The notes: a model not told the origin generated them from the letters alone. Numbered from the stretch's first letter, positions 5 to 42,335 are shown. The stretch is 64,000 bases of DNA from Myxococcota bacterium (GCA_046075485.1 JBJTQF010000040.1:7144-71143), one strand, 5' to 3'. Numbers and translations: made by a program.

Positions 5-1969
5 TTGTTGGCCCTGAGCCTCGCCACTGGACTGGGACTGAGCGCCTGCTCATCCGAGTTTCAAGCGGTCTCGGTCAACCCACGGCGGGCCTGGGACGAC
101 TCACAGCGGCTGCTCTTTTTGTATGGCTCGGGTTTTGAGCAGGGTGTGACCGCCACCGTCTCTTATATCGACCAAGAGGGACAGCCCCAGAACGCCAGCA
201 TCGCCAACGTGCAGGTGCTGGATGGTTATACCCTCGCGGGCTATTTGCCCAACTTGGCCGACCAAGTGAAAGCGGAGATCTTCCCCTACAAAGAATTTGT
301 GGGATACTCCGGCAGCGTGACCCCTGGACTGTACGACTGCTCCAGCGGTGAGCCGATCCTCTATACCCCAGGCTCGACCCTCACCTATTGTAACGCCCTG
401 GGCCAAAGTTTGAGTTATGCCCCCTTTGACGATACTCAGCCCAACGTGCCCCCCGCCAACGGTGAGAGCGCCCTTCGGTACGCCGACTGGTACGACCTCC
501 TGCACACCTGCACCTATTATCTGAGCGGCGAGAGCAGCATCACCGACGAACAACTGGCCCTGCTCATCCCCGATTATGGGCTCGGCTGTTTTTTCACCGA
601 GTCTGAAGGCCAGCGCACCTACGAATATTGTCCGCTCTACATCCCGAACAGCGAAGTGGATGTGATTGTGCAGCAAAATGGTGAGAGCCGGACCCTCTCG
701 CGGGCCCTCTCCCTGCGAAACCACGCCTACGACTACTATTATGACGAGCGATACGGCCAGCGCGTCCAGGGAGGCTTCGGCATCCTGGGAGAGCTGACCG
801 TGGGCATCGAAGAAGGGTTTGGTACACAAGGGGATGTTAACCAAGTCACCTTTGGAGATGGCTCCAGCGTGGGTTTGGTGGCCACCTTCAACACCGTAGA
901 CCAGACGGTCAGCCTGCTCAGCGATGTGTATGGCGGCACCCTCGGAGAAGCCACCGCCTACCGTTTTCTCGAAGGTGCCCCCAGCAGCGTCCGCTTGGGA
1001 CAGCTCAACGGCGACACCGTACCGGACCTGCTGGTCACCGTGCCAGACGACGGCGCCGCTTTTATCATGTACACCAGCGCCCAAGACCCCAGCACCGCCA
1101 GCCCTCTCAGCTTCGCCGGAGAACCCAGCCGCCTTCCCCTCATCGACTTTAAGCCTCAGCTCAGCGCCATTGGAGACGTCAACGGTGATGGGAATACCGA
1201 TATCGTCTTGGCGGGCGTGCGGGTGAGCAACGCCAGCACCGGGCGGATTGCCATCCTGCTTCGAGACGCAGACACCGGCTTGAGCACGCCGACCTATCGT
1301 GACATCGGTGGACCTCCTGCTCAGCTTGTGCTGGGGAGCCTCAACGCCGACTTTGGATTGGATATTGTGCTGCTGGACGCCAACACCCCCGCCCTCACCC
1401 GCGTGTTGAGCCGGAAAGAGCCGACCAGTGGTGCCCTCGAGTTTGTGGTCCAGACCTCCAACCTCTCGACCAGCAGCGAGCCGCTCGGGTTGGGTGTCGC
1501 ACAAGTGGGCTTTGACGACGGCAGCCTGCGCCATCAGCTCATGGACACCACCGGCGACGAAAAGACTGACGTGGTCTTGCTGGAGCGTGATGGAACCGAG
1601 CGCCACGTCTTGGTGTTTGCAGGCAATGGTGCCGGAGAGCTGAGCAATCCGGTCCCGACCGTCCTCCCCATCGCAGCGGAAGCCATCGGGTTGGTGCAGA
1701 CCGATGCCGATGGGCTGATCGATCTGGTCGCGGCGTCCCCGGAGGGTCGTTTGGCCCTGCTGAAGGGCTCCAGCTCCACCCGCTTTAACTTTGTGACCAC
1801 CCTCTACGGTGCCTCCGACGTGGGGCAGCTCTTCAGCTTAGATCTCGACCTGGATGGAGACGAAGACTTGCTCACCCTCAGCCCGCTCTCGGCGTCGCTG
1901 GCCCTCTACAACAACCCCTCCACCTTGTGGGAGTATTTTGAAAGCACCCTCGGCTATTGCACCTACTGA
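5..1969 (+). CDS. FG-GAP/VCBS-repeat lipoprotein (beta-propeller-like); 5' end may lie outside the window
   Basis: The ORF opens with LATGLGLSAC, a lipobox-like signal with no basic n-region, so the true start is probably upstream of position 1. It contains repeated DVNGDGNTDIVLAG / LDIVLLD / DTTGDEKTDVVLL / DLDLDGDEDLL motifs typical of FG-GAP calcium-binding propeller blades. The stop is TGA. Confidence 0.6.
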   Translation: MLALSLATGLGLSACSSEFQAVSVNPRRAWDDSQRLLFLYGSGFEQGVTATVSYIDQEGQPQNASIANVQVLDGYTLAGYLPNLADQVKAEIFPYKEFVGYSGSVTPGLYDCSSGEPILYTPGSTLTYCNALGQSLSYAPFDDTQPNVPPANGESALRYADWYDLLHTCTYYLSGESSITDEQLALLIPDYGLGCFFTESEGQRTYEYCPLYIPNSEVDVIVQQNGESRTLSRALSLRNHAYDYYYDERYGQRVQGGFGILGELTVGIEEGFGTQGDVNQVTFGDGSSVGLVATFNTVDQTVSLLSDVYGGTLGEATAYRFLEGAPSSVRLGQLNGDTVPDLLVTVPDDGAAFIMYTSAQDPSTASPLSFAGEPSRLPLIDFKPQLSAIGDVNGDGNTDIVLAGVRVSNASTGRIAILLRDADTGLSTPTYRDIGGPPAQLVLGSLNADFGLDIVLLDANTPALTRVLSRKEPTSGALEFVVQTSNLSTSSEPLGLGVAQVGFDDGSLRHQLMDTTGDEKTDVVLLERDGTERHVLVFAGNGAGELSNPVPTVLPIAAEAIGLVQTDADGLIDLVAASPEGRLALLKGSSSTRFNFVTTLYGASDVGQLFSLDLDLDGDEDLLTLSPLSASLALYNNPSTLWEYFESTLGYCTY

Positions 1970-2034
1970 CGCAAACCGACGTGCATTTCTCACGGCTGGA
2001 GGATCCTCATATGTATGGTTTTAAGGAGTTGGGC

Positions 2035-4851
2035 ATGCAGAAGTCTCTGATTCGGCTTCTCGCGTTTTTGTTTCTGATGTGGGGTGCCGTAGGGGTCTTT
2101 GCGGCGGAGACCGGCACCTTACGAGGCTCGGTCAAAGATGCCGCCACCCAGACCCCACTCGAAGGGGTGCAAGTGGCCGTCGAAGGCAACGCGCTCCCCG
2201 GTGGGCGCTCTCGGCTGACCGACCCCAAAGGCAATTTCTGGTTTCCGGTGATTCCGCCCGGTGAGTATCGCATCACCTTCTCCAAAGAAGGGTATCAGAA
2301 CCGGGCCTTTAACGCCTCCGTGCGTTTGGACCAGACCACCACCATTCCACCGGTGGAGCTGGCCTTACTCTCTTATACCACCGAAGCCATCGAAGTCGTC
2401 GAGACCGCCCCCGTCATCGACAATACCCAATCGGCGGTCACTCAGAACCTCGACGAAGACTATTTTGATCGCCTGCCGGTGGGACGCAGCTATCAAGCCG
2501 TCATCCAGACCTTGCCCGGCGTCTCGGGACGCATCAACTACTCCGGCGGAGGCCCCTCCACTGGCAACCCCAGCGTGCGCGGTGAAGGTCAGTACGGGAA
2601 CAACTACCTGCTCGAAGGATTCTCGACCCGCGATCCCTTGACCAAAACCACCGGGTTTGACCTCCCGTTTGACGCCCTCCAAGAGATCAACGTCTTCACC
2701 GACGGCGCACCCGCTGAGTATGGCAACTTTACCGGCATGGTGGCCAACATCTTGCTCAAAGCGGGCTCAAACGAGTATCACGGCTCGGCCACCTACGGTT
2801 TTAACACCTCGGCGAGCTGGGGACAGGTGCTGCAAGCCAACCCTGCGCAAGATCTGACCCAGCCGGTATTGGTGGACAAACGTTCGTTCCGCAACCATAA
2901 CCCGGTGCTCTCTCTCTCGGGGCCGGTGGTGCCCGACAAGCTCTGGTTCCTCTCTCTGGTCAACTTTACCACCGGTGAGCAGCGGCTGGAGGGTGCGGCC
3001 AGCTCCACCTATACTCCTTATAATTATCAGGTGCTCAACCGCTTTACGTGGAATCCCTTCCAAGATTCCAGCACCCTGCTCAACTTTACCGTCCAGAAAC
3101 AGCAATATTATCTGGAAGGCGCCGATGCCAGTGCCCTGGTAGCACCCGAAGCCACCACCAACTTTGCTTATGACCTGCTGGCGCTCAACGCGAACCTCAA
3201 GGCCAGCCTCTCTCCTTTTGTGGTGCTCGAGGCGAAGTGGAACAAGACCAATCGTTCCTTCTATGACATCTCGGTGGTCAATGAGTATACCCCCTCCGTT
3301 GAAGACTACGAGACCGGATATGTTTCCGGCAACACTCTGGTGTTGTACTCCACCTTGAGGCAGCGGGAGGGATTTGCCATTCATCTGACCGGTTTTATGA
3401 CCGAGCTGCTGGGCCAGCATGTGGTCAAAGGTGGGTACGAGTACCACAACACCCGCAATACGGACGAGTTTCGGTTCACAGGTGGTATCGGAACTGAAGA
3501 TGCGCCCGCGTATTCCTACGTGACCATCGGGGGCGAGCCCTATCAGCGATATGAGTATTATAACGTGGGGCCACTCTCCCATGAGGGTGACAACCATGTG
3601 CTCTTCTTGCAGGACCAGTGGCAGCCGGTGAGTAACTTGACCCTCAACCTGGGTCTGCGGGGAGACAACGAGACCCTGGTGCAAGACGCGGGACGGCGGG
3701 TGATCGACCAGTGGGCGATCTCTCCTCGTTTTGGTGCCGCTTGGGATATCACCGGCGATGCCTCCAACGTGCTCACCGTCAATGCGGGGCGCTATTACGA
3801 CATCAACGGCCTGACCTTTGCAGCCTGGGCCGATACCCGGAGTGCCTATTATTTTACGCTGTGTGAGTATAATCCGGCGACACAGGCTTACGATCTCAAC
3901 TGCTATACCCAGGATCCGGTGGGGAATCCGCTGGTATATGGCGATGGTTTGGTACCCTATCACCTGGATAAGTTTACCCTCGGCTTTACCCGTGCGGTGA
4001 ACACCGACATTGCGGTGGGCATCAAGGCCATCATCAGCAGCAGCAAGGATCTGCCGGAAGACGCGCAGTTTACCCCTGTGCATTGGGAGATCGTCAACCC
4101 GGAGCTCAAGCGTCGAGACTACCAAGCCCTGGAGCTGACGGTGGACCGTAAATTCCGGGACAACTGGCAGGTGTTGAGCGCACTCACCCTCGCGCGCACG
4201 CGAGGCACCAGCCCTGGATCCTTTGATCAAGGCAACGGTGATGGCAACCAAGTGGGCACCTTCATGGATGATATGGCCGACCCCTGGCAGCGTACCGCCA
4301 ACGATTATTTTGGGTATGACTTTGCCGGGCTGGGTTACAACGACTATACCGCTTTTAACCAGACCTTCGAGGGCAGCACCGAAGGATGGTATGGGTATCT
4401 GCCGGAGCATTCGTTTGTGAACTTTAAGCTCAACGGCTCCTACTTTTTGCCGTTTGGCACGGAGCTGGGCATGGTATACGAGTTTGATTCCGGTCATGCG
4501 TGGCAACGACGAGGCAGTGTGCCTGCTTATGGTTTTACTTCTTTTCCCGAAGGAAGAGGCGCTCGTTTTATGCCACCGGTGCATTATCTCGATGTGCGCG
4601 TGGCCCACAACATCACCCTCAAGAACAACCGTAAGCTCTCCGCTGAGCTGACCCTCTTCAATGTGCTGGACCTGCAAGGGGTGGTCAACTATTACGAGAG
4701 CTGGACGTTGCCCAACGACTACGACATCGACGCCGATGGCAATATCCACTATTACGACCGGAATGGAAACGAGATCAACCAGCTCTTTGGCCAGCCCCTC
4801 TATTATCAAGCCCCACGTTCCTTGCGGGCCTACCTCAAGCTGGAGTTCTGA
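2035..4851 (+). CDS. TonB-dependent-receptor-like outer-membrane beta-barrel with an N-terminal carboxypeptidase-regulatory-like domain
   Basis: ATG at 2035 sits behind AAGGAG (2023-2028) and gives the signal peptide MQKSLIRLLAFLFLMWGAVGVFA. An N-terminal GTLRGSVKD..GEYRITFSKEGY segment looks like a CarbopepD_reg fold. It is followed by a plug-like DNTQSAVTQNLDEDYFDRLP segment and a long Tyr/Gly/Asn-rich region ending in a C-terminal Phe (KLEF). Confidence 0.6.
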   Translation: MQKSLIRLLAFLFLMWGAVGVFAAETGTLRGSVKDAATQTPLEGVQVAVEGNALPGGRSRLTDPKGNFWFPVIPPGEYRITFSKEGYQNRAFNASVRLDQTTTIPPVELALLSYTTEAIEVVETAPVIDNTQSAVTQNLDEDYFDRLPVGRSYQAVIQTLPGVSGRINYSGGGPSTGNPSVRGEGQYGNNYLLEGFSTRDPLTKTTGFDLPFDALQEINVFTDGAPAEYGNFTGMVANILLKAGSNEYHGSATYGFNTSASWGQVLQANPAQDLTQPVLVDKRSFRNHNPVLSLSGPVVPDKLWFLSLVNFTTGEQRLEGAASSTYTPYNYQVLNRFTWNPFQDSSTLLNFTVQKQQYYLEGADASALVAPEATTNFAYDLLALNANLKASLSPFVVLEAKWNKTNRSFYDISVVNEYTPSVEDYETGYVSGNTLVLYSTLRQREGFAIHLTGFMTELLGQHVVKGGYEYHNTRNTDEFRFTGGIGTEDAPAYSYVTIGGEPYQRYEYYNVGPLSHEGDNHVLFLQDQWQPVSNLTLNLGLRGDNETLVQDAGRRVIDQWAISPRFGAAWDITGDASNVLTVNAGRYYDINGLTFAAWADTRSAYYFTLCEYNPATQAYDLNCYTQDPVGNPLVYGDGLVPYHLDKFTLGFTRAVNTDIAVGIKAIISSSKDLPEDAQFTPVHWEIVNPELKRRDYQALELTVDRKFRDNWQVLSALTLARTRGTSPGSFDQGNGDGNQVGTFMDDMADPWQRTANDYFGYDFAGLGYNDYTAFNQTFEGSTEGWYGYLPEHSFVNFKLNGSYFLPFGTELGMVYEFDSGHAWQRRGSVPAYGFTSFPEGRGARFMPPVHYLDVRVAHNITLKNNRKLSAELTLFNVLDLQGVVNYYESWTLPNDYDIDADGNIHYYDRNGNEINQLFGQPLYYQAPRSLRAYLKLEF

Positions 4852-4857
4852 GCCCTC

Positions 4858-6018
4858 ATGCCCTTGCGTGTTGTGCATGTGCTGCTGGAGCCTCGGATGG
4901 GAGGTCCGCAGCTCCGAATTCTCGCGGTGGCGGAGGCGTTGCGGCGAGAGGGCATCGAGAGCCGAGTGGTATTGCCCGAGGGGCCTGCTCCGTTTGAAAC
5001 ATACCTACGAGCCCGGGATTTTGAGGTGGCGCGCGTGCCGCTCACCCGCTTTCGGGGATCCTCTGATCCTCGCCTTCTGCTCGAGAGCCTCAAAAACCTG
5101 CCGCCCGGCACCTCCGCTTTGGTAAGGATTCTTCGCGCCTGTCACGCAGATATTGTACATATACATGGACTGTATCAGCCTCAAGGAGCACTGGCCGCGC
5201 GTATCGTGGGTATCCCGTTGGTATGGCATCTCAACGACCTGCTGCTGCCGCGAGCGTTGGTGCGGGTACTGGCGCCGGGGGTGTTGAAGGTGGCGCAGGC
5301 CGCGATCACGGTCTCTGAAGCGGTGCGTCGGTATCTGTTTGAGGGCTTGGAGACCCACGGGCGGGTGGTGACGATCTACGATCCACCGGTCAGAACGGAG
5401 AATATCTCCGCTCAGCCTGCTCAGCGGTCTCACGAAGGGCTGGAGCTGCTCACGGTGGGCAACTTGTACGCCGTCAAAGGGCAGGATACCCTGGTGGAGG
5501 CCATGCGCTATCTTCGCCTGCCTGCCACCTTGAGGCTGGTCGGCGCGCCGTTGGACACTCAGCCGGAGGTGGCACGTCGGCTGGAGCAGCTTCGTCGGAG
5601 CTTGCCGGATCCTACCCGTGTGCGGCTGGAAGGCTGGCAAGAAGACGTGGCTGGATTTCTGGCTCGGGCGGATGTCTATGTGCATCCCTCTCGCTCTGAA
5701 GCCTGTCCTCTGGCGGTGCTGGAGGCCATGAGCGCCGGAAAAGCGGTGGTGGCCACCCGGGTGGGTGGAGTGCCGGAGCTGGTCCAGGAGCTGCACACCG
5801 GCTTGCTGGTGCCTCCGGGTGAGCCTCGCCTGCTTGCGCTGGCGTTGGAGTCCTTATTGCAAGACGACGGGCGACGGCTGACGTATGGTGTGGCCGCTCA
5901 ACAGCGCGTCACTCGGTATTTTTCGCTGACACGGTGTGCGCAGCGACATGCAGCGATTTATCGAGCGGTCCTCGAGGGCAGGCCCGCTGCGGATTCGGTA
6001 GACCCTCTGATGGGATGA
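4858..6018 (+). CDS. Glycosyltransferase, GT4 family (GT-B fold)
   Basis: The C-terminal motif EACPLAVLEAMSAGKAVVATRVGGVPELV is the classic GT4 E-X7-E region. The length (386 aa) fits the family. Confidence 0.8.
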   Translation: MPLRVVHVLLEPRMGGPQLRILAVAEALRREGIESRVVLPEGPAPFETYLRARDFEVARVPLTRFRGSSDPRLLLESLKNLPPGTSALVRILRACHADIVHIHGLYQPQGALAARIVGIPLVWHLNDLLLPRALVRVLAPGVLKVAQAAITVSEAVRRYLFEGLETHGRVVTIYDPPVRTENISAQPAQRSHEGLELLTVGNLYAVKGQDTLVEAMRYLRLPATLRLVGAPLDTQPEVARRLEQLRRSLPDPTRVRLEGWQEDVAGFLARADVYVHPSRSEACPLAVLEAMSAGKAVVATRVGGVPELVQELHTGLLVPPGEPRLLALALESLLQDDGRRLTYGVAAQQRVTRYFSLTRCAQRHAAIYRAVLEGRPAADSVDPLMG

Positions 6019-6944
6019 GCCGTATGAAGATCTTGGTCACCGGTGGTCTGGGTTTTATTGGGCAGCACTTGGTGCGCACGCTGCGGAGCGATGGGCATGA
6101 AGTGTGGACGCTTGACCTGCTGCACCATCACGATCCTCAGCACTTGCGGGTGGACATGCGCTCGTATCGGGCGCTCGAGCACGCCCTCGCGGGGGGAGGA
6201 TTTGAGCTGGTCTATCAGCTTGCGGCGGAGGCGGGGCGCTGGAACGGCGAAGCGCACTATGAAGCGTTATGGGAAACCAATGTGATAGGAACCAAACATC
6301 TCATCCGGCTTCAAGAAAAGCTCCACTTTCGGATGGTTTTTTTGTCCAGCTCAGAGATCTATGGAGACTTCGACGGCGTGATGTCGGAGGACGTGCCGGA
6401 TCACACACCGATTCGGCTCTTGAACGACTACGCGATGACCAAGTGGGTGGGAGAGTGTCAGATCCGCAACTCTGAGACCATGTTTGGCACGGAGACGGTG
6501 CGGGTGCGCCTCTTTAATGTGTATGGAGCTGGAGAGTATTGGGGAGAAAACCGGGGGGTGGTGGCGCGTTTTTTGTACAGTGCCTATTACGACCTGCCCT
6601 ATACCGTCTATTTGGATCACCATCGGACCTCCACCTATGTCACCGACACGGTGAGAACGCTGGCCAATATCGCCACTCGCTTCCGGCCCGGCGCGGTTTA
6701 TAACGTGGGAGGGCACGAGTATCACGACATCAAGGGGCTCTCCGACCTGATCCTGCACAAGCTGGGCAAGAGTGACGAGCGGGTGACCTATGCGCGGAGT
6801 GAAGCCTTCACGACCCGGGACAAACAAGTGGACATGAGCCGGGCAGAGCGAGAGCTGGCCCATCATCCGCAGATTTCGTTGAGTGAAGGGTTAGATCTTA
6901 CCATTATGTGGCTCAAGGAGCACTGGCCACCCGCACGGCGTTGA
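6015..6944 (+). CDS. NAD-dependent epimerase/dehydratase (SDR family)
   Basis: MKILVTGGLGFIGQHLV is a Rossmann GxxGxxG fold, and YAMTKWVGE supplies the YxxxK catalytic motif. ATG 6015 overlaps the upstream TGA (ATGA), so the start could also be 6024. Confidence 0.8.
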   Translation: MSRMKILVTGGLGFIGQHLVRTLRSDGHEVWTLDLLHHHDPQHLRVDMRSYRALEHALAGGGFELVYQLAAEAGRWNGEAHYEALWETNVIGTKHLIRLQEKLHFRMVFLSSSEIYGDFDGVMSEDVPDHTPIRLLNDYAMTKWVGECQIRNSETMFGTETVRVRLFNVYGAGEYWGENRGVVARFLYSAYYDLPYTVYLDHHRTSTYVTDTVRTLANIATRFRPGAVYNVGGHEYHDIKGLSDLILHKLGKSDERVTYARSEAFTTRDKQVDMSRAERELAHHPQISLSEGLDLTIMWLKEHWPPARR

Positions 6945-7035: not shown

Positions 7036-7282
7036 AAACGGCATGTAAAAGTCCTTTTAAATAGGAATGTTGCCAGGATATCTGCGCACGAAAGAAGGCG
7101 ATTTAAGCTAAAGATACCGACTCACCGGTATTAAATATCGAGTGCCATGTTCAAACTTCTTTTATAAGCCTTCGTAAAAACTTAAAATCTTGTTTGCCCA
7201 TAGAAAGAAGTCTATGCGATGCACGGACTGCTGCTTGTACGTTTCCAGTGGCAGCACCGCAGGCCACAAAGGAGCAGACAAG

Positions 7283-7882
7283 ATGGACAAACAGAGACGC
7301 TGGTTCTTACCCCTCGCCCTGCTCGCCGGACTCACGGCGTGTACGGGCACGGAAGACCCGAGTGAGACCCCCGATCTTTCTCCCACCGGAGAGACGGAGA
7401 GCCCCTCCGAGACCCCGACGAGCGCCACGCCCACCCCGACGAGCGCCACGCCCACCCAAGCGCCCGATACGGATGGAGATGGTCTCTTCGATGGCAACGA
7501 CAACTGTCCACCGCTTGACAATTCAGATCAAGCGGATCTCGATCAGGATGGCATCGGCGATCTCTGCGACGAAGATGTCGATGGAGATGGTTATCTGCCT
7601 GAGAATCCATTGCCCTCTCAGGTAGACTGTGATGACCGTGATGCACAGGTACATCCTTCCGCTGTGGAAGATTCATGCTCTGGCGCTGATACCAACTGTG
7701 ATGGCAGTGTGGCCTTCTGCTTTCCACCCGACGAAGGGGCTCAGCAGCTCCAAGTGGAGAGCTGCATCGGTCCCATGACCTTCACCATTGCCCCCATGCC
7801 GTGCAAGATCTGGAGCATTGTACCACCTATCGAGATGATGGCACCTTACTCTGTCGGGTGGAGCTCACATGCTCCCCCCTGA
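7283..7882 (+). CDS. Lipoprotein N-terminal segment with thrombospondin-type-3-like Asp-rich calcium-binding repeats; probably the first part of a frameshifted giant adhesin
   Basis: AAAGGAG (7268-7274) precedes ATG 7283. The signal MDKQRRWFLPLALLAGLTAC carries a lipobox, followed by a Pro/Thr/Ser-rich linker and DTDGDGLFDGNDNCP..DQDGIGDLCDEDVDGDGY repeats. The frame ends at TGA 7882, right after a C6 run (7873-7878). The +2 frame continues the ORF from there. Confidence 0.55.
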   Translation: MDKQRRWFLPLALLAGLTACTGTEDPSETPDLSPTGETESPSETPTSATPTPTSATPTQAPDTDGDGLFDGNDNCPPLDNSDQADLDQDGIGDLCDEDVDGDGYLPENPLPSQVDCDDRDAQVHPSAVEDSCSGADTNCDGSVAFCFPPDEGAQQLQVESCIGPMTFTIAPMPCKIWSIVPPIEMMAPYSVGWSSHAPP

Positions 7883-8841
7883 ACGACGATGAAGCGGTTC
7901 AGAGCAGCCTTCGCATCGAGCATGAGCTGCTCAGTCCAGCCCTTCAGCTTGAGCCCTTGTTGCAGTTTAACATCCCGGCAGAGGTGAGCTGGCCCTACCA
8001 ATATGATGAAGCCTCCAGCCTGCTCAGCAGCGCCAATGCCAGTGCATATGTAGACTGGCTGGGATTGCTTCAGCTCGATGAGCTGACGGGTGAGGTGCGT
8101 GAGACACTGTCTGCCGCCTCAGCGGGGGTGGATCAGGTGGTCTTTGCCCACGATCACTTCTCTACTTGGCAGGTGGGAACAGGGTCGCGGACCTTTGAGT
8201 TTGAGCCCGTCTATCAGAGCAGCGATCTTTTTCCCGGTGGAGACGCACGGGTGATTCTACCGCCCACGGGGAATGCCAGCCGAGCGTGGCGCTTCACTCA
8301 AAATACCGTGGAGGTGATCGGACGACAGAGTGACTTCCGAGCCATTCCATACTGTGTCTTTGAGACCAGCAGCGGCACGTATACGGCCAACAACTGCTTG
8401 ACCACCACGGTGGATGGAAGTGGCAGCAGTGGTGATCCCTATCTGGTGAAGGTACAACGTAATCCCATCATCAGTGTCACTCGCATTGAACACTTGGTCT
8501 ATGTGCTGGGGACAGCCGCCCTCAGCGCACCGTATGAGACCCACTGCTCCACCGATGCCATCCGTTTTGCCATTCAGAATGCACCGGCGCGAAGCAATGG
8601 GATCAGCGCGGGGTTTGTGCCGTGCAACAATGGTGGCAGTGGGGTGGTGGCACAGAATGATCCCTCCAGCAGCCATCAATGTCTTGATCTGATGGGCGAT
8701 CAACGACCAGAGCTCTTCAACTGTCTCGACCTAGAAGTGTGTACCCCGTCTGTCTTCTATCGTGATGGGGATGGGGATGGTTATGGCGCACTGGGTCAGA
8801 CCTACAGCGGCTGCACACAACCACTCGGCTACGTGATATAA
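7801..8841 (+). CDS. Middle segment of the giant surface protein, ending at an in-frame TAA inside a MopE-type repeat
   Basis: Open frame from GTG 7801, and open further upstream in the same frame. It ends ..DGDGYGALGQTYSGCTQPLGYVI followed by TAA at 8839-8841. The next ORF continues the same repeat in the same frame. Confidence 0.5.
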   Translation: MQDLEHCTTYRDDGTLLCRVELTCSPLNDDEAVQSSLRIEHELLSPALQLEPLLQFNIPAEVSWPYQYDEASSLLSSANASAYVDWLGLLQLDELTGEVRETLSAASAGVDQVVFAHDHFSTWQVGTGSRTFEFEPVYQSSDLFPGGDARVILPPTGNASRAWRFTQNTVEVIGRQSDFRAIPYCVFETSSGTYTANNCLTTTVDGSGSSGDPYLVKVQRNPIISVTRIEHLVYVLGTAALSAPYETHCSTDAIRFAIQNAPARSNGISAGFVPCNNGGSGVVAQNDPSSSHQCLDLMGDQRPELFNCLDLEVCTPSVFYRDGDGDGYGALGQTYSGCTQPLGYVI

Positions 8842-8904
8842 GCAGGAGACTGTGACGACACCGACGCTCAACGTTATCCCGGTCAGACCGAAGAGTGTGA
8901 CGGC

Positions 8905-11900
8905 GTGGACGATAACTGTGATGGTCAGATCGACAATGGCATCAGCTATCGTGACTACTATCGAGATCAGGACGAGGATGGATATGGGGATCCCCAAGTG
9001 ATAGAGTATGCATGTCGCCTCCCCAGCGGTTATGTCTACAATGATGAAGACTGCAACGATCAGAGCGCGAGCATCTCTCCTGCCATCGCAGAGCAGTGTG
9101 ATGGCATCGATCAAGACTGTGATGGCCAAGTGGATGAAGAGGTGGCCGGCGCTCCCGACTGGTATCCCGATGTGGACGAGGATGGAGAAGGTGCCGCCAA
9201 CAGCACACCCGTCTATGCCTGCACCGCACCCGAAGGATATGTGAGCGACAACGATGACTGTGATGACAGCCACTCAGAGGTCTACCCAGGCGCACAGGAG
9301 CTGTGTGATGGACTCGACAATGACTGCGATGAGAGCGTGGATGAGCCCGAAGACTTGGTGCAGCTCTCCTGGTATCCCGATGTCGATCAGGATGGCTTTG
9401 GAGATCAAAATGCCACCCCCACGCTGTCATGTGCAGTGATCTCTGGATCGGTCACCAATCACACGGACTGCGACGACCGCCAACGCACCACCTATCCCGG
9501 TGCGCCTGAGTTTTGTGATCAGCTCGACAACGACTGTGATGGTGTGGTCGATGACAGTGTCGTCACACTCACCTGGTACGAAGATCAAGATGGAGACGGC
9601 TACGGAGATATCGCCGGTGCCACCGTCACCGACTGCAAACCCGTGTCAGGTTACGTCAACAATAGCCTCGACTGCAACGATGCCGACGATGAGATCTATC
9701 CCACGGCATTAGAACGCTGTGATCAGCTCGACAACGACTGTGATGGTGTGATCGATGATTTCTCCGCACAGACCTTTGAAATCTATTGGGCGGATCAAGA
9801 CGGAGACGGTTTTGGAGCAGGGCCCGAAGTGCTCGACTGTGTTCAGCCCGCAGGTCTGGTGACCAATGGCGATGATTGTAATGATGCCGACGATGAAATT
9901 CATCCCCAAGCCCAAGAGATCTGCGATGGAGAAGTGGACAATGACTGCGACACCTTGGCCGATGATGCCGATGCGGATACCTTAGACAGCACCCGCTTAT
10001 CATGGTATCTCGACCAAGACACGGACGGATACGGGGTCACAGGCAACACCATCCGCCGCTGCAACGGCGAATCTCCCTACTTGGCGCTTCAAGGAGCTGA
10101 CTGCGATGACGGGGACCGAACGGTCTATCCAGCAGCCATCGAGCTGTGTGATCAGCAGGACAATGACTGCGACACGCAGGTCGATGAAGGCATCAGCTTT
10201 GTGAATTGGTATCCCGACGTAGACCAAGATGGATATGGCGATCAAAATGCCGCTCAAGTAGACTGCAAAGTCCCTCAAGCTGGCTGGACCACCCAGGGCG
10301 GTGATTGCCGCGACGACCGAGCGGACATCAAACCCGGTGCGCCTGAGTTCTGCGATGGGATCGACACCGACTGCGATGACATTCTGGACGAAGGATATGT
10401 CACCCGCTACTTCCGCGATCAGGACGGGGATGGTTTTGGAGATCCCAAACGTCCATCCTGCGTGGCCGCATCCGGGCATGTACCCGTGCGGGGAGACTGT
10501 GACGATGCACGCCCTGAGATTCATCCGGGTGCAACCGATCCCTCGGATTCCATCGACCAAGACTGTGGTGGAACCACCAAAGCCGATCCCCATGTAGGAT
10601 ACGGTGTGGGCTCCAATACCAAGCTCTCCACCGCCATCTCTTCCGCAGTGAATGGTCAGACCATCTGGGTCAATGCCGGTACTTATCTGGAATACAACCT
10701 CAGCTTCAGTGGAAAGAAGATCACCGTGATCTCCTCCCACTTTGAAGACCAGACCCTCGTGGATGCGCAAAACAAAGGACGAGGCTTCTCATTTGGCAGC
10801 CTTGACACCTCGGAAGCGGTCTTGGATGGATTCACCTTCCAGAACAACAGCAATGCCATCTACAGCATCAGCAGCAGTCCGACGCTGAGGCGGATTCGAG
10901 CTCTGACCAGCAGTGGGAATGCCATTCACATCGAAGGAGGCAAACCCAACCTCTCATACTGCTATGTGAGAGATGCGGCGGGCTCGGGCATCTATGCGTA
11001 CAACTCATCGCCGCTGATCCGATACAGTCAGCTCCTGCGCAACCGCACGGGCATCTGGGTCTATCGAGGCTCCTTCAGCATGGAACACTCTCTGGTGATG
11101 GGTAATACCGGTAACTATCCAGACTATACCGGGATCTATATCATCGAAGGATCGGGCTCCGTCAGCAGCAGCATTGTGGCCTACAATCCGGGACTCAACA
11201 TCGCTTTGCGCAGCTCCGCCTTGGCGATCAGCTACAGCAACATCTACAACCCACTCGGTGCCGCTTATGTGACCACCGATACCACCAATCTCCTCACCGA
11301 GCCGGGTTTTGTCTCGTATCGTCATCGCGCCAATATTGAGGATGCGACCCTCTATCTAGGCCCCTTGTCGAGCCTTCGAGATGCGGGAAACACTGCCGAA
11401 GTGGATCCCGATGGAACACGGGCAGATATCGGTCCATTTGGTGGACCTGAAGCAGAGGCTGCATATTACATCGACGGTGAAGCCGATGGCTCAGGAGATG
11501 GACTCTACGATGGCTGGGAGCGTCAGCACGGTTTAAATCCTTCTACGCTCGATGATGCCACCGATCTCGATGGAGACGGTGTCAGCAACTTTGAGGAGCT
11601 GGAACGTCATCTGCTCCCCAATTCGGCGGATACCGACCTCGATGGTGCCTCCGATGGTATGGAGCTGAGCGCCGGCAGTAATCCGCTGGACTGGTACGAA
11701 CAGCCGGGAGAAACCTATCCGGTTGAAGCACAGGTGCCAGGCGACTTTGCCACCCTTCAAGCCGCTGTGGATGCCATCATCTCTCCGCGTGCAGGTGACA
11801 GCATCATCAGACAAGGTGCGATTGCATTGGGCCCTCTGAGTGTTGGAGGTCAATCGGCAGTGGCATATCAGAAGGTGATGCGCATCTCTGGAGCAGGAGC

Positions 11901-13686
11901 AGATCAGACGGTGCTGGAAGAGAGCTCCATTCGGGTCTATCACAGCACCCTCAAGCTCTCAGACGTGGCGCTCTCTGAGAGCTCCGCCAGTGGGGTTGCC
12001 TGTCTCAATACCTCTGTTTGTACCATCACTGGCGTGGACAGTGATATGCATGCGGTGCATGGCTTTAACCTCCAAGGAGGGAGTCAAGCGACGTTAACCG
12101 ATGTCTCGGCTTCCAACAATGGGGGCACGGGTATTTATGTGTACTCCACCGTCACTGCGACATTGGATGAGGTGCTGCTTTCGGCAAACAAGGCCGCAGC
12201 GGGTGGAGGTCTTGATATCTCGATGGGCTCCACCGTCAACATGACGGACTTCATCATCAGCGACCACTCGAATACACGCGGTGGAGGGATTGTACTCGAG
12301 CGCACGACGCGGGAGGTCTCCACCATCTATGGAGAAGGAGTGCTCAAGGCGGAGCGTGGGTCGATTGTCAAAAATGTGTCGTCCTCTCATGGTGGGGGCG
12401 TCTATATCAACTATGGGACTCCCTCGTTTATCGATGTACTCTTTGAAAAGAATGTCTCCGGGACACATGGGGGAGGTTTTTTCAGTCAATATGCCACCAG
12501 CAACTTCACGGACTGCGACTTTTACGAGAACTCATCCGTGAGTTCGGGAGGGGGAGCCTACCAATATTCTGGGACGATGAACCAGACACGAGGGCGGTTT
12601 CTCGACAATACATCTGCACTGGGAGGAGCCATTCGAGGGAATCAGATGGCCCTTAGCCTCAAAGAAGGCAACTACTTTGAAGGAAACTCGGCAACTCAGG
12701 ATGGAGGCGCGGTGGCCTTCAACGATGGTAGTTTCTCTGCCAATGTCGGCAGTCAGTTCTATCGAAACTCGGCGGGGGGACGAGGAGGAGCCATCCACTT
12801 GTTTAATGCCTCGGGCAGCATGCTCTGGGGCCGCTATATCGAGAACCAGGCACGCGATGCGGGGGCGATCTACTTTCTGAAGTCCACACTCACCCTCAAA
12901 AATGGGCGTTTTATTCAGAATACGGCGGAGTACGACGGCGGTGCCATCTTGATGAATGAGTCGGGCACCTCCACTCAGGTGTTCTCGAACCTGCGTTTTG
13001 AGGGGGGCTCTGCTCGAAAGGGAGGGGCGATGAGGCTGTATCTGTCGAATCCGACCCTCTCCAACCTGCTTTTTATCAACAACCAGGCGTCGGAGCAGGG
13101 CGGGGCGCTCTACATCGACAACGCTTCTCCGCTGCTGAAGCACTTGGTGATGGTGCGGAATCAAGCCGGGCAGGGCGGAGCGGCGCTGCTGGGTGTGGGG
13201 GCTAAACCGACGGCCTCGGAGCTGATCGTGGCGTACAATAGTCCCGACAACCTGCGGCTGGAGGACACGGCAGCACCCACCTTAACGTTCAGTGTGCTCT
13301 ACAATCCTGCTTCTTATTCCAACCACAACCTGAGCAGTCCGGCGGGCACGCTCTATACCTCTGAGCCTGCTTTCTTGCGTTACACAGATGTGACCTCCGG
13401 CGCTAGCTGCTCGCCGGGCAACCACATGAGCTGTCTGCCGGTGGATTACCATCTTGCCAGCGGAGGATTTTCAGTGGGAAAAGGCACCACCGGCGGCAAA
13501 GACGTGGACAACTCCACCCTCGACCTGGGGATTTATGGCGGAGCTCTTGGGGATGACTGGAATCTCGACTACGATAAAGTGGTGGATTGGTTCTGGCCGG
13601 GCCCGATCTCAACGCCGCCTCCCGGTTATAACGTGTTGAACTACGACTGTAATGATCTCTCGGCGAGCCAACAGAGCGGGTGCTGA
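8905..13686 (+). CDS. Giant cell-surface protein: about nine MopE-type putative metal-binding repeats, then a right-handed beta-helix region with Chlamydia-Pmp-like GGA[ILV] repeats
   Basis: Repeats of the form YxDxDGDGYG..C..P.GYV...DC[ND]D....YPGA.E.CDG.DNDCDG.VDE are PF11617-like. Downstream are many GGAI/GGAL/GGAV + FxxN repeats (QDGGAVAF, GRGGAIHLF, DAGAIYF, YDGGAILM, EQGGALYI). It is in frame with the previous ORF, 63 nt after its TAA. Confidence 0.7.
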   Translation: MDDNCDGQIDNGISYRDYYRDQDEDGYGDPQVIEYACRLPSGYVYNDEDCNDQSASISPAIAEQCDGIDQDCDGQVDEEVAGAPDWYPDVDEDGEGAANSTPVYACTAPEGYVSDNDDCDDSHSEVYPGAQELCDGLDNDCDESVDEPEDLVQLSWYPDVDQDGFGDQNATPTLSCAVISGSVTNHTDCDDRQRTTYPGAPEFCDQLDNDCDGVVDDSVVTLTWYEDQDGDGYGDIAGATVTDCKPVSGYVNNSLDCNDADDEIYPTALERCDQLDNDCDGVIDDFSAQTFEIYWADQDGDGFGAGPEVLDCVQPAGLVTNGDDCNDADDEIHPQAQEICDGEVDNDCDTLADDADADTLDSTRLSWYLDQDTDGYGVTGNTIRRCNGESPYLALQGADCDDGDRTVYPAAIELCDQQDNDCDTQVDEGISFVNWYPDVDQDGYGDQNAAQVDCKVPQAGWTTQGGDCRDDRADIKPGAPEFCDGIDTDCDDILDEGYVTRYFRDQDGDGFGDPKRPSCVAASGHVPVRGDCDDARPEIHPGATDPSDSIDQDCGGTTKADPHVGYGVGSNTKLSTAISSAVNGQTIWVNAGTYLEYNLSFSGKKITVISSHFEDQTLVDAQNKGRGFSFGSLDTSEAVLDGFTFQNNSNAIYSISSSPTLRRIRALTSSGNAIHIEGGKPNLSYCYVRDAAGSGIYAYNSSPLIRYSQLLRNRTGIWVYRGSFSMEHSLVMGNTGNYPDYTGIYIIEGSGSVSSSIVAYNPGLNIALRSSALAISYSNIYNPLGAAYVTTDTTNLLTEPGFVSYRHRANIEDATLYLGPLSSLRDAGNTAEVDPDGTRADIGPFGGPEAEAAYYIDGEADGSGDGLYDGWERQHGLNPSTLDDATDLDGDGVSNFEELERHLLPNSADTDLDGASDGMELSAGSNPLDWYEQPGETYPVEAQVPGDFATLQAAVDAIISPRAGDSIIRQGAIALGPLSVGGQSAVAYQKVMRISGAGADQTVLEESSIRVYHSTLKLSDVALSESSASGVACLNTSVCTITGVDSDMHAVHGFNLQGGSQATLTDVSASNNGGTGIYVYSTVTATLDEVLLSANKAAAGGGLDISMGSTVNMTDFIISDHSNTRGGGIVLERTTREVSTIYGEGVLKAERGSIVKNVSSSHGGGVYINYGTPSFIDVLFEKNVSGTHGGGFFSQYATSNFTDCDFYENSSVSSGGGAYQYSGTMNQTRGRFLDNTSALGGAIRGNQMALSLKEGNYFEGNSATQDGGAVAFNDGSFSANVGSQFYRNSAGGRGGAIHLFNASGSMLWGRYIENQARDAGAIYFLKSTLTLKNGRFIQNTAEYDGGAILMNESGTSTQVFSNLRFEGGSARKGGAMRLYLSNPTLSNLLFINNQASEQGGALYIDNASPLLKHLVMVRNQAGQGGAALLGVGAKPTASELIVAYNSPDNLRLEDTAAPTLTFSVLYNPASYSNHNLSSPAGTLYTSEPAFLRYTDVTSGASCSPGNHMSCLPVDYHLASGGFSVGKGTTGGKDVDNSTLDLGIYGGALGDDWNLDYDKVVDWFWPGPISTPPPGYNVLNYDCNDLSASQQSGC

Positions 13687-13841: not shown

Positions 13842-15689
13842 TTATTTCTGCGCGTCGGTGATGTCGTAGATGATATTGCGTGAGAGCCGATACAGCTCCA
13901 CCGTTGAGGCGGCGATGTTTTTCTCGGTGCTGGCGGTATAGGCATCGAAGCTCTGGTCTTGGTTGTCGTATGAGAACAGCTCCCAGTTGACGTAGCGGTC
14001 GCTGCTCAGCCCCACAAACGCGAGAGAATCCGGTAACGTCGGCACCACAAAAGAGGTGGTCTCAGCGGGCAGCCAGAGATCCCACACCAGCTCATCGGTC
14101 CATTTTCCGCTGACCTTTCGTTTCCAGGTGAAGACGGAGCGGTTGATGGAGGTATCCGGCACGGCATACTGCACAAATTTCCGCTCAGCATACTGTGTCT
14201 CGAGCTTGTCCACCTGGAGCAGGGACATAAAGGGAGGGGTGATCACCAGCTCGGAGCCGTTCTGAGGATATCCCTTCACGGCCACATAAGCGCCTTCTTC
14301 GCCCACACCCGCTTCGGCGGCCATCACCAGCCCCAGCACCGGCACACTGTCGAACTCTTTGGGATGCCAGACGCTGACGGTGGAGGACTGACGCGCTCCG
14401 GCCACACCGATGGGCAGGTAGTGGTTGTCTCCCAAATCCGCCAGGGCAAAGGCCACCGGCAGATAGTCCGCGTCGATGCCCGACGGAAGCTGCGGCACGC
14501 GGATGTCGAGCGGGCTATTGGTGACACCATCGGGGGCTTGCAGAACGCCTTCGGTGTTGTTGGGTGCGACAATCTCGATATCATTGCCCACGTCGTAGGC
14601 AAACGTGTTCATGTTGTCGATGGTGATCAGGAGCTTGCCGAGGTTGGTAAAGATGGTCTCATCGGTGAGCCAGGTGAGCACATCGCTGGCGACCAAGTTT
14701 CCGGCCAGCATATAAGAGTCGTAGAAGCCGGTCGGTCCAGGCACGGAGTACTTGAGCAGCTCGGGATCCTGTCCGCAATAGGTGGGCGTCTGACCCACAA
14801 TGTTGGAGGGCAGGGCGGTCGTCGTCCCACACACATCCACCCAGCGGTTTTTGCCGATGATGGTCGCGGTATCCAGCGCAAGCGGATTGCCGACAAAACT
14901 CCGTGTGATGAGTCCCACACGAATTGTCTTGTTATCCGGCAGTGGTCCCATCGCCGAGAAGTCTACATCCCCCTTAAACTGTCCCTGCAAGGCTTCGGCG
15001 GAGGCGCGCATCGGCAGCTCCACCGTGCGCTGGACCACCTGATACAAGGTGGCGTGATAGTACCCGCTGAGGGTGCCGGTGACGATCTGCGGTCCCGAGA
15101 AGTCTCCTTCGATGACCACCACACCGTTTTCGTCGGCGGTGTGGCTCTCGGTGCCATCCAGTCCACGGTAGAGCACAGCGCCGGGAAGGGGTGCGCGGGT
15201 GGTGGCATCGACCAGCTTGACGGTCATCTTGCCATTGGCGAGCACTTCCACCTGAGCGGCGTTGCTGCTGAGCCCTTCGTAGGAGGCGGAGATCTCGGCG
15301 GTGCCGGGTGCCACGGGGGTCAGGCGGCCCGATGCGTCGAGGGTGGCCACCCCTTCGTCAGAGGATGACCAGGTGAGGGTGACGTCGGTTTCTTCGCCGG
15401 AGCGCAGGTAGGCGCGGGCGGTAAACTGCACGGTGGAGGCCAGGTCAAGCTGGAACTGACCGGGGGTGACCACGATGGAGGCGACAGGATTGGGCACCGG
15501 TGTTGGGGTGGGGGTGGGGGTGATCACCCCGCTGTCGGGTGGCTGCGTGGGGGTGGCGGTGGGGGCCTCTGCTTCAGGCGTGGGGGAGGTCGGAGTCGGA
15601 GAGGGATCCGGCTCTTCGGTGCAAGCGGCGAGCAGAACCAGGGCCATCCCAGGCAGCAGGCGCTTATTTCGTTCCAGGTGCTTGTTCAT
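13842..15689 (-). CDS. Lipoprotein with a Pro/Thr-rich linker and a bacterial Ig-like (Big_2) domain
   Basis: AGGAG lies 6 nt upstream of ATG 15689. MNKHLERNKRLLPGMALVLLAAC carries a lipobox, followed by a PTPTSPTPEAEAPTATPTQPP linker. IVVTPGQFQLDLASTVQFTARAYLRSGEETDVTLTWSSSDEGVATLDASGRLTPVAPGTAEISASY fits a Big_2 pattern. Confidence 0.6.
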   Translation of the reverse strand: MNKHLERNKRLLPGMALVLLAACTEEPDPSPTPTSPTPEAEAPTATPTQPPDSGVITPTPTPTPVPNPVASIVVTPGQFQLDLASTVQFTARAYLRSGEETDVTLTWSSSDEGVATLDASGRLTPVAPGTAEISASYEGLSSNAAQVEVLANGKMTVKLVDATTRAPLPGAVLYRGLDGTESHTADENGVVVIEGDFSGPQIVTGTLSGYYHATLYQVVQRTVELPMRASAEALQGQFKGDVDFSAMGPLPDNKTIRVGLITRSFVGNPLALDTATIIGKNRWVDVCGTTTALPSNIVGQTPTYCGQDPELLKYSVPGPTGFYDSYMLAGNLVASDVLTWLTDETIFTNLGKLLITIDNMNTFAYDVGNDIEIVAPNNTEGVLQAPDGVTNSPLDIRVPQLPSGIDADYLPVAFALADLGDNHYLPIGVAGARQSSTVSVWHPKEFDSVPVLGLVMAAEAGVGEEGAYVAVKGYPQNGSELVITPPFMSLLQVDKLETQYAERKFVQYAVPDTSINRSVFTWKRKVSGKWTDELVWDLWLPAETTSFVVPTLPDSLAFVGLSSDRYVNWELFSYDNQDQSFDAYTASTEKNIAASTVELYRLSRNIIYDITDAQK

Positions 15690-36999: not shown

Positions 37000-37459
37000 T
37001 GTTCTTTTGGGCTCAATTCTTTGGGGCTCAATTCTTTGGGGCTGGAGCTTCTTCGGATGCGTCGCTGCGTTCATGGGGCCTCCCGTCTTTCGGTTGTGGA
37101 TCTGCAAGGCGTGGATTTGACGCTTACTTGCATCTGGATGCAGCTTGCAGAACTTTGCAGCGGTGTCAATCAGAGAATGGTGCAGACGCATGAAGCGCAC
37201 GAGCCCAGCGGTAACGCTTCAGTGTAGATGTCATCCACCACCGAGAACAGCTCCAGGCCCCCATTTTCCCTTTACATCTCCCCCTCCTTTTCGATAACAT
37301 CTGCCCCGGTTTTGCGGATCGTAGTTTGGTTGTGTCGCCCCGCGCAGCGCCTCTCGTATGTGCTCTCCCCCTCTTCGTGCGCCCCGAAGAGTCGTCTCTG
37401 TGCCCCAGGCTCGCCCGAGTCTGAGGCACTCTCACGACTACTTTTTGAGGGTGACTGTT

Positions 37460-41506: not shown

Positions 41507-41519
41507 GAGGAGTAGCGCC

Positions 41520-42335
41520 ATGAACGACACCTATGAGCAAGACTATTTTGTCTATTATCCACCGCCCTTCTCAGAGGCATTTCCCTACCCCCGCCTTGCG
41601 TGGGGAGAGACCAGCAGCGGGCCTTTCCACAAAGGTCGGGTGTTGGAACGTAAACAATATCCAGAGTTTGTGGAGTGGACGCGGGTCAAGAAGCCCCAAT
41701 ATCCCGAGTGTTTTAAGCTCAGCGGAACGTGGCCGGTGGTGGCGGAGCGTGTGTGGAGCGTGCTGGCGGCCCTGAATCTGTACGGGATGGACCTGCACCC
41801 AGCCCGAGTCCTGACCCGCAAGAAGGAAAACCTTCCCAACTATAAGCTCGTACATGTCTGGAATAAGTTTCTTTGTATCGACCGGGAACGCTCTCAAGCG
41901 ACTTGGGAGGAATTCCCGGAAAATCGCATCCGTGAGCCGATTTCGCTCCGGCTGGACCGGGAGGTGATGGCCGCCATTCCCCTCGAGCGGCGCCTGGTCT
42001 TTCGCCCTGAAGAAGAGAGCGTCGCCGTGGTCTTTCACCGGACGGTGGTGGAGAAGCTCATGGCGATTCGGCCCACCGGCATCATGTTTGCCCCTTTTGC
42101 GACCGCCAATTATCGCTGGCTCTACCAAGTCTTCGAGACACCCTTTCCACCGGTGGTGCCAGAAAAGCCGTCGCTGCTGCGAAAGCCTCCGACCCTGGCC
42201 AATCAGTTTGCGGCGCGAAAGCTGGAGGTCAAACCGAGCCGTCCGAAGATCGAGCGTCCGCCCCGCATCGAAACCAAAGAGCTGTTTGCTCAGATGAAAG
42301 CGGAGTCCGCCCGGCGTCGAGCTGGGAAAGAGTAA
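41520..42335 (+). CDS. Candidate cognate immunity protein for the upstream AHH toxin
   Basis: It starts 14 nt after the toxin stop on the same strand. It has no signal peptide and is Trp/Tyr/Pro-rich (YEQDYFVYYPPPFSEAFPYPRLAW...). I cannot assign a family by eye. Confidence 0.4.
   Translation: MNDTYEQDYFVYYPPPFSEAFPYPRLAWGETSSGPFHKGRVLERKQYPEFVEWTRVKKPQYPECFKLSGTWPVVAERVWSVLAALNLYGMDLHPARVLTRKKENLPNYKLVHVWNKFLCIDRERSQATWEEFPENRIREPISLRLDREVMAAIPLERRLVFRPEEESVAVVFHRTVVEKLMAIRPTGIMFAPFATANYRWLYQVFETPFPPVVPEKPSLLRKPPTLANQFAARKLEVKPSRPKIERPPRIETKELFAQMKAESARRRAGKE

Follow-up and report, generated by a model that had tools for sequence, protein, structure and literature searches.

A giant surface lipoprotein gene of an uncultured Myxococcota bacterium, broken by a one-base deletion and a nonsense codon, is probably a young pseudogene

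The window, the stretch of 64,000 nucleotides (nt) analyzed here, comes from an NCBI metagenome-assembled genome (MAG) of an uncultured Myxococcota bacterium (GCA_046075485.1, JBJTQF010000040.1:7144-71143) and has a guanine-cytosine (GC) content of 58.6%. Between 7283 and 13686 on its plus strand, open reading frame (ORF) calling on the window finds three ORFs in succession. ORF1 occupies 7283-7882 in frame 2 and ORF2 occupies 7801-8841 in frame 1. ORF3 is also in frame 1; it is open from 8842, has its first start codon at 8905, and ends at 13686. Each ORF is long and free of further internal stops. GenBank lists ORF1 (MFM7199916.1) and ORF2 (MFM7199917.1, ACKO6N_03930) as distinct proteins. 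The former is a "putative metal-binding motif-containing protein" of 199 amino acids (aa), the final 28 of which are out of frame, and the latter is named "hypothetical protein". ORF1, ORF2, and ORF3 are pieces of a single lipoprotein gene, 7283-13686 on the plus strand, and an ortholog in a sister lineage is colinear with this gene and stays in one frame across both of its lesions. An earlier note on this DNA had read the three ORFs as one protein architecture of about 2130 aa, with ORF3 continuing in the frame of ORF2. The ortholog supports that reading, the shared frame is confirmed, and the repaired translation is 2,134 aa long. The repaired product is 15.6% Asp+Glu and 4.8% Lys+Arg and contains 61 Cys residues.

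Translation of the gene begins at an ATG at 7283. A Shine-Dalgarno sequence, AGGAG, lies 8 nt before it (7270-7274, plus strand) and is the sole site of its kind among the candidate starts. The N-terminus of ORF1, MDKQRRWFLPLALLAGLTAC, is a lipoprotein signal. It carries a lipobox of the pattern [LVI][ASTVI][GAS]C, read as MDKQRRWFLPLALLAGLTA|C, with L-T-A-C at residues 17-20. The predicted lipoprotein signal peptide covers 7283-7342 on the plus strand and, from the translation, Cys20 is the putative lipidated residue. The candidate starts of ORF2 and ORF3 are GTG only, have neither a Shine-Dalgarno sequence nor a signal peptide, and, for ORF3, the start falls within a MopE unit.

The ortholog was recovered by a search with the C-terminal part of the protein, which returned P0124 (75% identity) on contig L003. 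This contig of 11.8 kilobases (kb) is from Logan run ERR14789957 and is approximately 76% identical to the window gene at the nucleotide level. Two contigs from two further runs (ERR14822423 and SRR36526140), L004 and L005, are identical to L003, so that three samples carry this form. The genes around it are in the same order as in the window: an opposite-strand Big_2 lipoprotein, an extracytoplasmic function (ECF) sigma factor, a tetratricopeptide repeat (TPR) protein, GcvH, and GcvT. At the two sites that are lesions in the window, L003 reads through in a single frame (...CIGPMTFTIAPNAVQDLEHCTTHRDDGTLLCRVELSCSPLNDD... and ...GCTQPSGYATQAGDCDDTDAQRYPG...), and the frame-continuous stretch at the first site is also given as ...CIGPMTFTIAPNAVQDLEHCTTHRDDG.... 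Ortholog comparison had been proposed earlier as a check, with three separate intact genes as the contrary outcome; L003 is instead continuous at both sites. A first scan of GTDB genomes for the ortholog returned no match. The second scan returned L008, a Lujinxingiaceae MAG that has a MopE-like tail only and was rejected as an ortholog.

Lesion 1 is a 1-nt deletion at 7791-7797 on the plus strand, at or beside a tract of five C residues (C5, 7791-7795); past it, the coding frame is frame 1 and no longer frame 2. The window has ATT GCC CCC -AT GCC GTG where L003 has ATT GCT CCA AAC GCC GTC, and the two proteins are colinear across the site (...MTFTIAP[H/N]AVQDLEHC..., window versus L003). Codon usage was also used to place the junction, with a likelihood trained on the other long ORFs of the window. 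Its maximum is at 7792-7798, with an advantage of 14 bits, about 10^4-fold, over 7879. Since frame 1 is open from about 7700, any position in 7700-7880 could have been the point of frame loss, and the TGA at 7880-7882 is merely the first stop met out of frame. The segment from 7798 to this TGA (7798-7882, plus strand) is thus the out-of-frame tail of ORF1, and its true frame is frame 1.

The earlier note had attributed the break to a poly-C frameshift at a C6 tract. A frameshift is indeed present, but not at that tract; the true lesion lies some 80 nt upstream, at the C5 tract, and can be located both by the ortholog and by codon statistics. The C6 tract had been placed at 7873-7878 and actually occupies 7874-7879. 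In the true frame it encodes Ser-Pro-Leu. The window has TGC TCC CCC CTG here and L003 has TGC TCA CCC CTC, of equal length and in frame; therefore, there is no lesion at this site. Deletion of one C from the C6 tract had been said to join the frames. Single-C deletions at the C6 and C5 tracts were tried and discarded, since they go in the wrong direction and give a translation full of stops. Only the addition of one base or the removal of two joins the frames, which equals a -1 shift in reading. The window holds 61 homopolymer runs of at least 6 nt, among which the C6 run is unremarkable. As this case shows, a homopolymer that adjoins the first stop out of frame may be taken wrongly for the place where the frame was lost, and for a phase-variation switch as well.

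Lesion 2 is a TAA nonsense codon at 8839-8841 on the plus strand, inside a MopE unit, as had been noted before and as translation and the ortholog bear out. Where the window encodes GYVI*AGDCDD, L003 encodes GYATQAGDCDD, and the L003 codon opposite the TAA is CAG (Gln). Judged from this alignment, the lesion is a Gln-to-stop change, CAA or CAG to TAA. TAA also terminates 4 of the 21 neighboring genes. The codon is therefore not reassigned, and reassignment of TAA was rejected on these grounds.

Both lesions occur in two assemblies. Logan contig L002 (4.3 kb, run SRR29270176) covers window positions 7428-11897 and matches the window exactly at the C5 tract, at the C6 tract, and at the TAA. It represents a slightly different haplotype of the same species, with 3 single-nucleotide polymorphisms and a difference of one 204-nt MopE unit. 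With respect to undercalling of homopolymers, 50 of the 61 runs of at least 6 nt lie inside intact ORFs of at least 250 aa. The same is true of 115 of the 149 G/C runs of at least 5 nt. Since most runs sit in intact long ORFs, there is no general undercalling of homopolymers in this assembly.

The MopE unit that differs in L002 is a separate matter. L002 is short of exactly one unit of 204 nt, or 68 aa (window 9514-9758 versus L002:2087-2127), and the missing unit is flanked by a perfect 41-nt direct repeat at 9514-9554 and 9718-9758. Either the number of repeats in the surface protein is truly polymorphic, or the k=31 assembly graph collapsed here. The haplotype difference may add size variation to the surface protein.

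Selection on the gene was measured as the ratio of nonsynonymous to synonymous substitution rates (dN/dS) by the Nei-Gojobori method, segment by segment, between the window and L003. The ratio is 0.08 before the frameshift (7424-7793), 0.10 between the lesions (7798-8838), 0.17 in the MopE units past the TAA (8842-9316), and 0.12 in the C-terminal 965 codons. Three intact neighboring genes have values of 0.03-0.07. The synonymous divergence dS between the window and L003 is about 1-2. Purifying selection has acted on the whole gene during almost the entire divergence of the two lineages. Because dN/dS is low everywhere and no extra stops or frameshifts are present, the inactivation is recent.

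The gene is probably an ordinary young pseudogene of a giant surface lipoprotein, inactivated by two independent point lesions and carrying no phase-variation switch. Its ORF is broken at positions where the ortholog is unbroken, and the downstream fragments have no translation and export signals of their own. In the intact state, the product would be a giant, very acidic, exported lipoprotein with an N-terminal lipid anchor. The deletion at 7791-7797 would then shift the frame, and the nonsense change at 8839-8841 would be a separate event. Translation from the Shine-Dalgarno sequence and the ATG at 7283 should now yield a truncated lipoprotein of 199 aa, made up of 171 native and 28 out-of-frame residues. 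The 1,900 codons downstream are presumably not productively expressed or exported, because the candidate starts there lack a Shine-Dalgarno sequence or signal peptide. A decaying pseudogene had been the fallback of the earlier note and is the best reading, yet the decay is very recent. A corrected annotation would combine the fragments MFM7199916.1 and MFM7199917.1 into one entry marked as a pseudogene, and the chief value of this result is annotation hygiene.

Several points weigh against a pseudogene. The ratio dN/dS is 0.08-0.17 throughout and gives no hint of relaxed selection, there are no lesions beyond the two, and the call rests on these two mutations. The 5' end of the L003 ortholog is missing, as its contig breaks in the repeat of the Pro/Thr-rich (PT) linker. 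The MAG and L002 may share one read set, in which case they are not fully independent. Moreover, the lesions, seen at the level of assemblies, need not be fixed in the population, and an intact allele may co-exist with them.

An artefact of sequencing, assembly, or MAG consensus would mean that the gene is really intact and that one or both lesions are errors; the earlier note had offered assembly error as an alternative. Single-base deletions in homopolymers are a classic error type, and a single run behind both the MAG and L002 would let an error appear twice. The repeats of the gene also disturb assembly, as seen in the 204-nt difference of L002 and the contig breaks in the PT linker. Identical lesions are nevertheless obtained from two assemblers and two haplotypes, lesion 2 is a substitution and involves no insertion or deletion, and neither lesion sits in a repeat that could be mis-joined. 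Together with the 115 G/C runs of at least 5 nt that are found in intact ORFs, this makes an artefact unlikely. The GenBank annotation implies three separate functional genes. Three coding sequences are called by NCBI, and by Prodigal on the Logan contigs, and all three ORFs are long and lack further stops. Set against the continuous ortholog, this arrangement is highly improbable. ORF2 and ORF3 have no Shine-Dalgarno sequence, ATG, or signal peptide even though they encode Cys-rich modules of an extracytoplasmic kind, ORF3 begins in a MopE unit, the tail of ORF1 is out-of-frame sequence, and the homologues P0125 and P0126 are single ORFs.

Phase variation, the interpretation favored earlier, holds that a full-length adhesin is frequently toggled ON and OFF by slipped-strand mispairing in a poly-C tract. 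The product does belong to the surface proteins, a class in which contingency loci are common, and the C5 homopolymer at the true lesion would have been C6 provided that a C was deleted. Phase-variable loci are called with a poly-G/C cut-off of 7, and tracts at the cut-off may switch inefficiently (PMC6321876); the tract at lesion 1, C5 now and at most C6 when intact, is below this cut-off. The C6 tract at 7874-7879 is not the lesion, and deletion of a C there leaves the frames unjoined. L003 has no tract at lesion 1 (GCT CCA AAC), tract lengths are equal in the window and L002 haplotypes and assemblies, and with 149 G/C runs of at least 5 nt in the window the tract is not special. One added base would restore the frame, yet the TAA at 8839 would still truncate the product at residue 519. 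A tract of at least 7 nt, variation of its length between assemblies, restoration of the product by a change in the tract, and conservation in the ortholog are four marks of a contingency gene, and all four are absent here, which leaves a slippage switch very unlikely. Programmed recoding would combine a -1 frameshift, or transcriptional slippage, with read-through of the TAA to give a low level of full-length protein. The passage from frame 2 to frame 1 fits the geometry of a -1 shift, in which one base is re-read, and both C CCC C (7791-7795) and CCC CCC beside the TGA at 7880 are sequences on which a peptidyl-tRNA(Pro) could pair anew. A canonical X XXY YYZ heptamer is lacking, however, and TAA is a normal stop in the neighboring genes. 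L003 needs no recoding at either site, whereas recoding signals are normally conserved. We know of no gene with two independent recoding events, which counts further against this explanation, and it must be considered extremely improbable.

The sister lineage has a change of its own in this gene. The contigs L003, L004, and L005 run from the third MopE unit (...ELCDQLD) straight into the first beta-helix, at its middle (FSFGSSDTSE...). At this junction, L003 1880-2090, they lack the 1,468 nt that correspond to window 9318-10785, and the frame passes from 0 to 2, which splits the ortholog into ORFs of 694 aa (partial) and 918 aa. The junction has no repeat that would allow a jump in a k-mer graph, and the contigs from the three runs are identical across it. 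We think that this out-of-frame deletion of about 1.47 kb is real. If so, each of the two sister lineages recently lost the gene on its own, a hint that surface proteins turn over in these organisms. Such losses would fit recurrent selection to be rid of a protein exposed on the surface, such as an antigen or a receptor used by phages or predators; that they reflect this selection, and not neutral decay, is doubtful.

The repaired protein starts with a lipobox and a PT linker. These are followed, in order, by TSP3 repeats, one MopE motif, an orphan domain of 320 aa, an array of nine or ten MopE repeats, and two beta-helices with PMP-type rungs (GG[AG][ILV]). The domain content claimed in the earlier note (lipobox, PT linker, TSP3, MopE, and Pmp/beta-helix) was recovered by translation and by searches of Pfam and NCBIfam. 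Pfam finds TSP_3 and one MopE in ORF1, no match in ORF2, and MopE (nine copies), Beta_helix (three copies), Chlam_PMP, and TSP3_bac in ORF3. NCBIfam adds TIGR01376, POMP_repeat (E=2.4e-11). All parts lie on the plus strand.

The PT linker is read from the translation at 7343-7465. It contains a perfect 21-nt tandem repeat, present 2.2 times at 7412-7457 and encoding TPTSATP, and the Logan contigs of both lineages break at this repeat. Asp-rich TSP3-type repeats of the calcium-binding type follow at 7466-7591 (Pfam TSP_3, E=2.6e-7; DTDGDGLFD and DLDQDGIGD). The first Cys-rich MopE motif is at 7625-7711, residues 115-143 of ORF1 (PF11617, E=6.6e-8). The MopE array extends over 8752-10590 in units that are each about 68 aa, or 204 nt, long and is matched by PF11617 in nine stretches (E=9.8e-81). 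These nine copies follow the TAA, and the first unit of the array is the one that the TAA cuts. The PF11617 scores, 33.1 bits in ORF1 and 266 bits for the nine copies in ORF3, exceed the gathering cut-off of 27.

The C-terminal half of the architecture begins with a right-handed parallel beta-helix at 10627-11319, matched by Pfam Beta_helix. Bacterial TSP3 repeats (DLDGDGVSN and DTDLDGASD) lie between the two helices at 11563-11691; the Pfam TSP3_bac match is below threshold in the window (17.9 bits) and clear in the ortholog P0124. The second beta-helix, at 12202-13120, has PMP/POMP-type repeats that are supported by Chlam_PMP (E=2.5e-12), TIGR01376, a motif map, and an AlphaFold2 model. It has approximately 11 rungs with GGG[ILVFA] or GGA[ILVM] at a spacing of 26-27 residues; GGA[ILVM] is counted 7 times and GGG[ILVFA] 5 times. 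A short, conserved, Cys-containing C-terminal tail and the stop codon are at 13540-13686 (...DWFWPG...YDCND...), and P0125 and P0126 have the same tail. Pfam searches of the ORFs find no match to the autotransporter barrel PF03797, and the C-terminus of the repaired protein has no MYXO-CTERM.

The C-terminal 1,028 residues were modeled with AlphaFold on an alignment of 13 sequences. The mean predicted local distance difference test (pLDDT) score is 64.6, with about 80-95 over the first helix (model residues 10-240). The model shows this part as two predicted right-handed parallel beta-helices. A PDB sequence search with the C-terminal part returned no match. Foldseek comparison of the model with the PDB returned generic beta-helix matches with low TM-scores, namely PL6 alginate lyases, mannuronan epimerases, autotransporter passengers, and tailspikes, and therefore no specific activity is assignable. 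From its domain types, the intact protein was most likely a lipid-anchored, calcium-stabilized surface adhesin or a glycan-binding or glycan-modifying protein. Among Myxococcota, this build typically belongs to surface adhesins or glycan-binding proteins.

The orphan domain is a Cys-containing region of about 320 aa at 7798-8751 on the plus strand, between the first MopE motif and the MopE array. It has no match in Pfam, NCBIfam, or the PDB. Among approximately 15 billion proteins, the sole homologue is the same locus in the sister lineage, and among 5.8 billion clustered proteins and 1.84 billion representatives, the only match is P0121, again the same locus. Two marginal matches with E of about 1e-4 were disregarded. 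When the query spans both lesions, generic MopE and TSP3 matches dominate the protein search and none spans the middle domain. A scan of JGI metagenomes with MopE peptides as patterns returned 80 loci, all 80 of them generic MopE and none with the orphan domain. A single-sequence AlphaFold2 model reached a pLDDT of 35 and is unusable. The domain is under purifying selection (dN/dS 0.10 against L003) and its cysteines are conserved. By these comparisons, it is apparently a lineage-specific domain without detectable relatives.

Directly downstream of the giant gene, a convergent gene at 13842-15689 on the minus strand encodes a lipoprotein with a PT linker and Big_2. Its counterpart in the sister lineage is 90% identical, and both copies are intact. 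This Big_2 lipoprotein may be functionally linked to the giant lipoprotein. Upstream, 5-6944 on the plus strand encodes an FG-GAP repeat protein, an outer-membrane barrel protein with CarboxypepD_reg and Plug, a GT4 glycosyltransferase, and an NAD-dependent epimerase, and is a neighborhood of cell-envelope and polysaccharide genes. Further away, 37358-42335 on the plus strand includes a gene for a protein of 1,382 aa with Arm repeats and a C-terminal AHH nuclease domain (HNH/EndoVII-type), and an ORF of 271 aa directly after it. The pair looks like a polymorphic toxin and its immunity gene. Rfam and tRNA scans of the window returned no match, and a promoter and terminator scan of the window found nothing beyond the shuffled expectation.

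The giant gene can be compared with several known systems. Like the poly-G/C contingency loci of Campylobacter and Neisseria (PMC6321876), it is a surface-protein ORF that is frameshifted beside a homopolymer. It differs from those loci in its tract, which has 5 bases versus at least 7, is not conserved, and is constant between assemblies, and in its second lesion, a nonsense codon that is not reversible.

The chlamydial Pmp proteins (PF02415/TIGR01376) are surface proteins in which repeats of the GGA[ILV] type form the rungs of a beta-helix, as in the window gene. Repeated GGA[ILV] / FxxN motifs are a mark of this family, and the window protein shows it in its GGA[ILVM] and GGG[ILVFA] motifs and in its PF02415 and TIGR01376 matches. 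In contrast to the Pmp family, it has no autotransporter beta-barrel or Pmp middle domain (Pfam, E of 0.01 or better) and has a predicted N-terminal lipid anchor instead. Because the autotransporter barrel is absent, the window protein is, by its domain content, not a chlamydial-type Pmp. This type of repeat is widespread beyond Chlamydia, and the likeness is at the level of the repeat, not of the family.

With the MopE-motif proteins (PF11617) of Myxococcota, the gene shares the Cys-rich motif DC[DN]D...P...C D..D.DCD, in eleven copies. The MopE of Methylococcus binds copper. Copper binding by the window protein cannot be inferred from the MopE motif. The TSP3 region partly matches MtsC, a TSP3 cohesion protein (NF047638, E=1.2e-12); the match covers the TSP3 stretch only, scores 47.5 bits against an equivalog cut-off of 350, and comes without MYXO-CTERM.

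The closest comparison is with metagenomic lipoproteins that combine MopE and beta-helices. In P0125 (1,435 aa) and P0126 (1,256 aa), lipoproteins each encoded by one intact ORF, the domains follow each other in the same order. Their N-termini are of the same kind as that of ORF1, with a lipobox signal, which is followed by a PT linker, a PF11617 MopE array, the motif "DQDCGGTT..PHVGY", and a beta-helix. Thereafter come the TSP3_bac motif "DGWE..GLNP", a second beta-helix, and the "DWFWPG" tail, all as in the window gene. Identity between the window gene and the metagenomic MopE and beta-helix lipoproteins is 29-37% over the common parts. Unlike the window gene, these lipoproteins are intact single ORFs, and they lack its N-terminal eukaryote-type TSP_3 repeats and 320-aa orphan domain. 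The earlier note had called the pairing of MopE and Pmp repeats unusual, but it recurs: Chlam_PMP is matched in the intact P0126 and in P0142, and MopE is paired with Beta_helix in P0125 and likewise in P0142, P0036, and P0101. A family of giant lipoproteins with MopE and a double beta-helix exists in Myxococcota-like bacteria.

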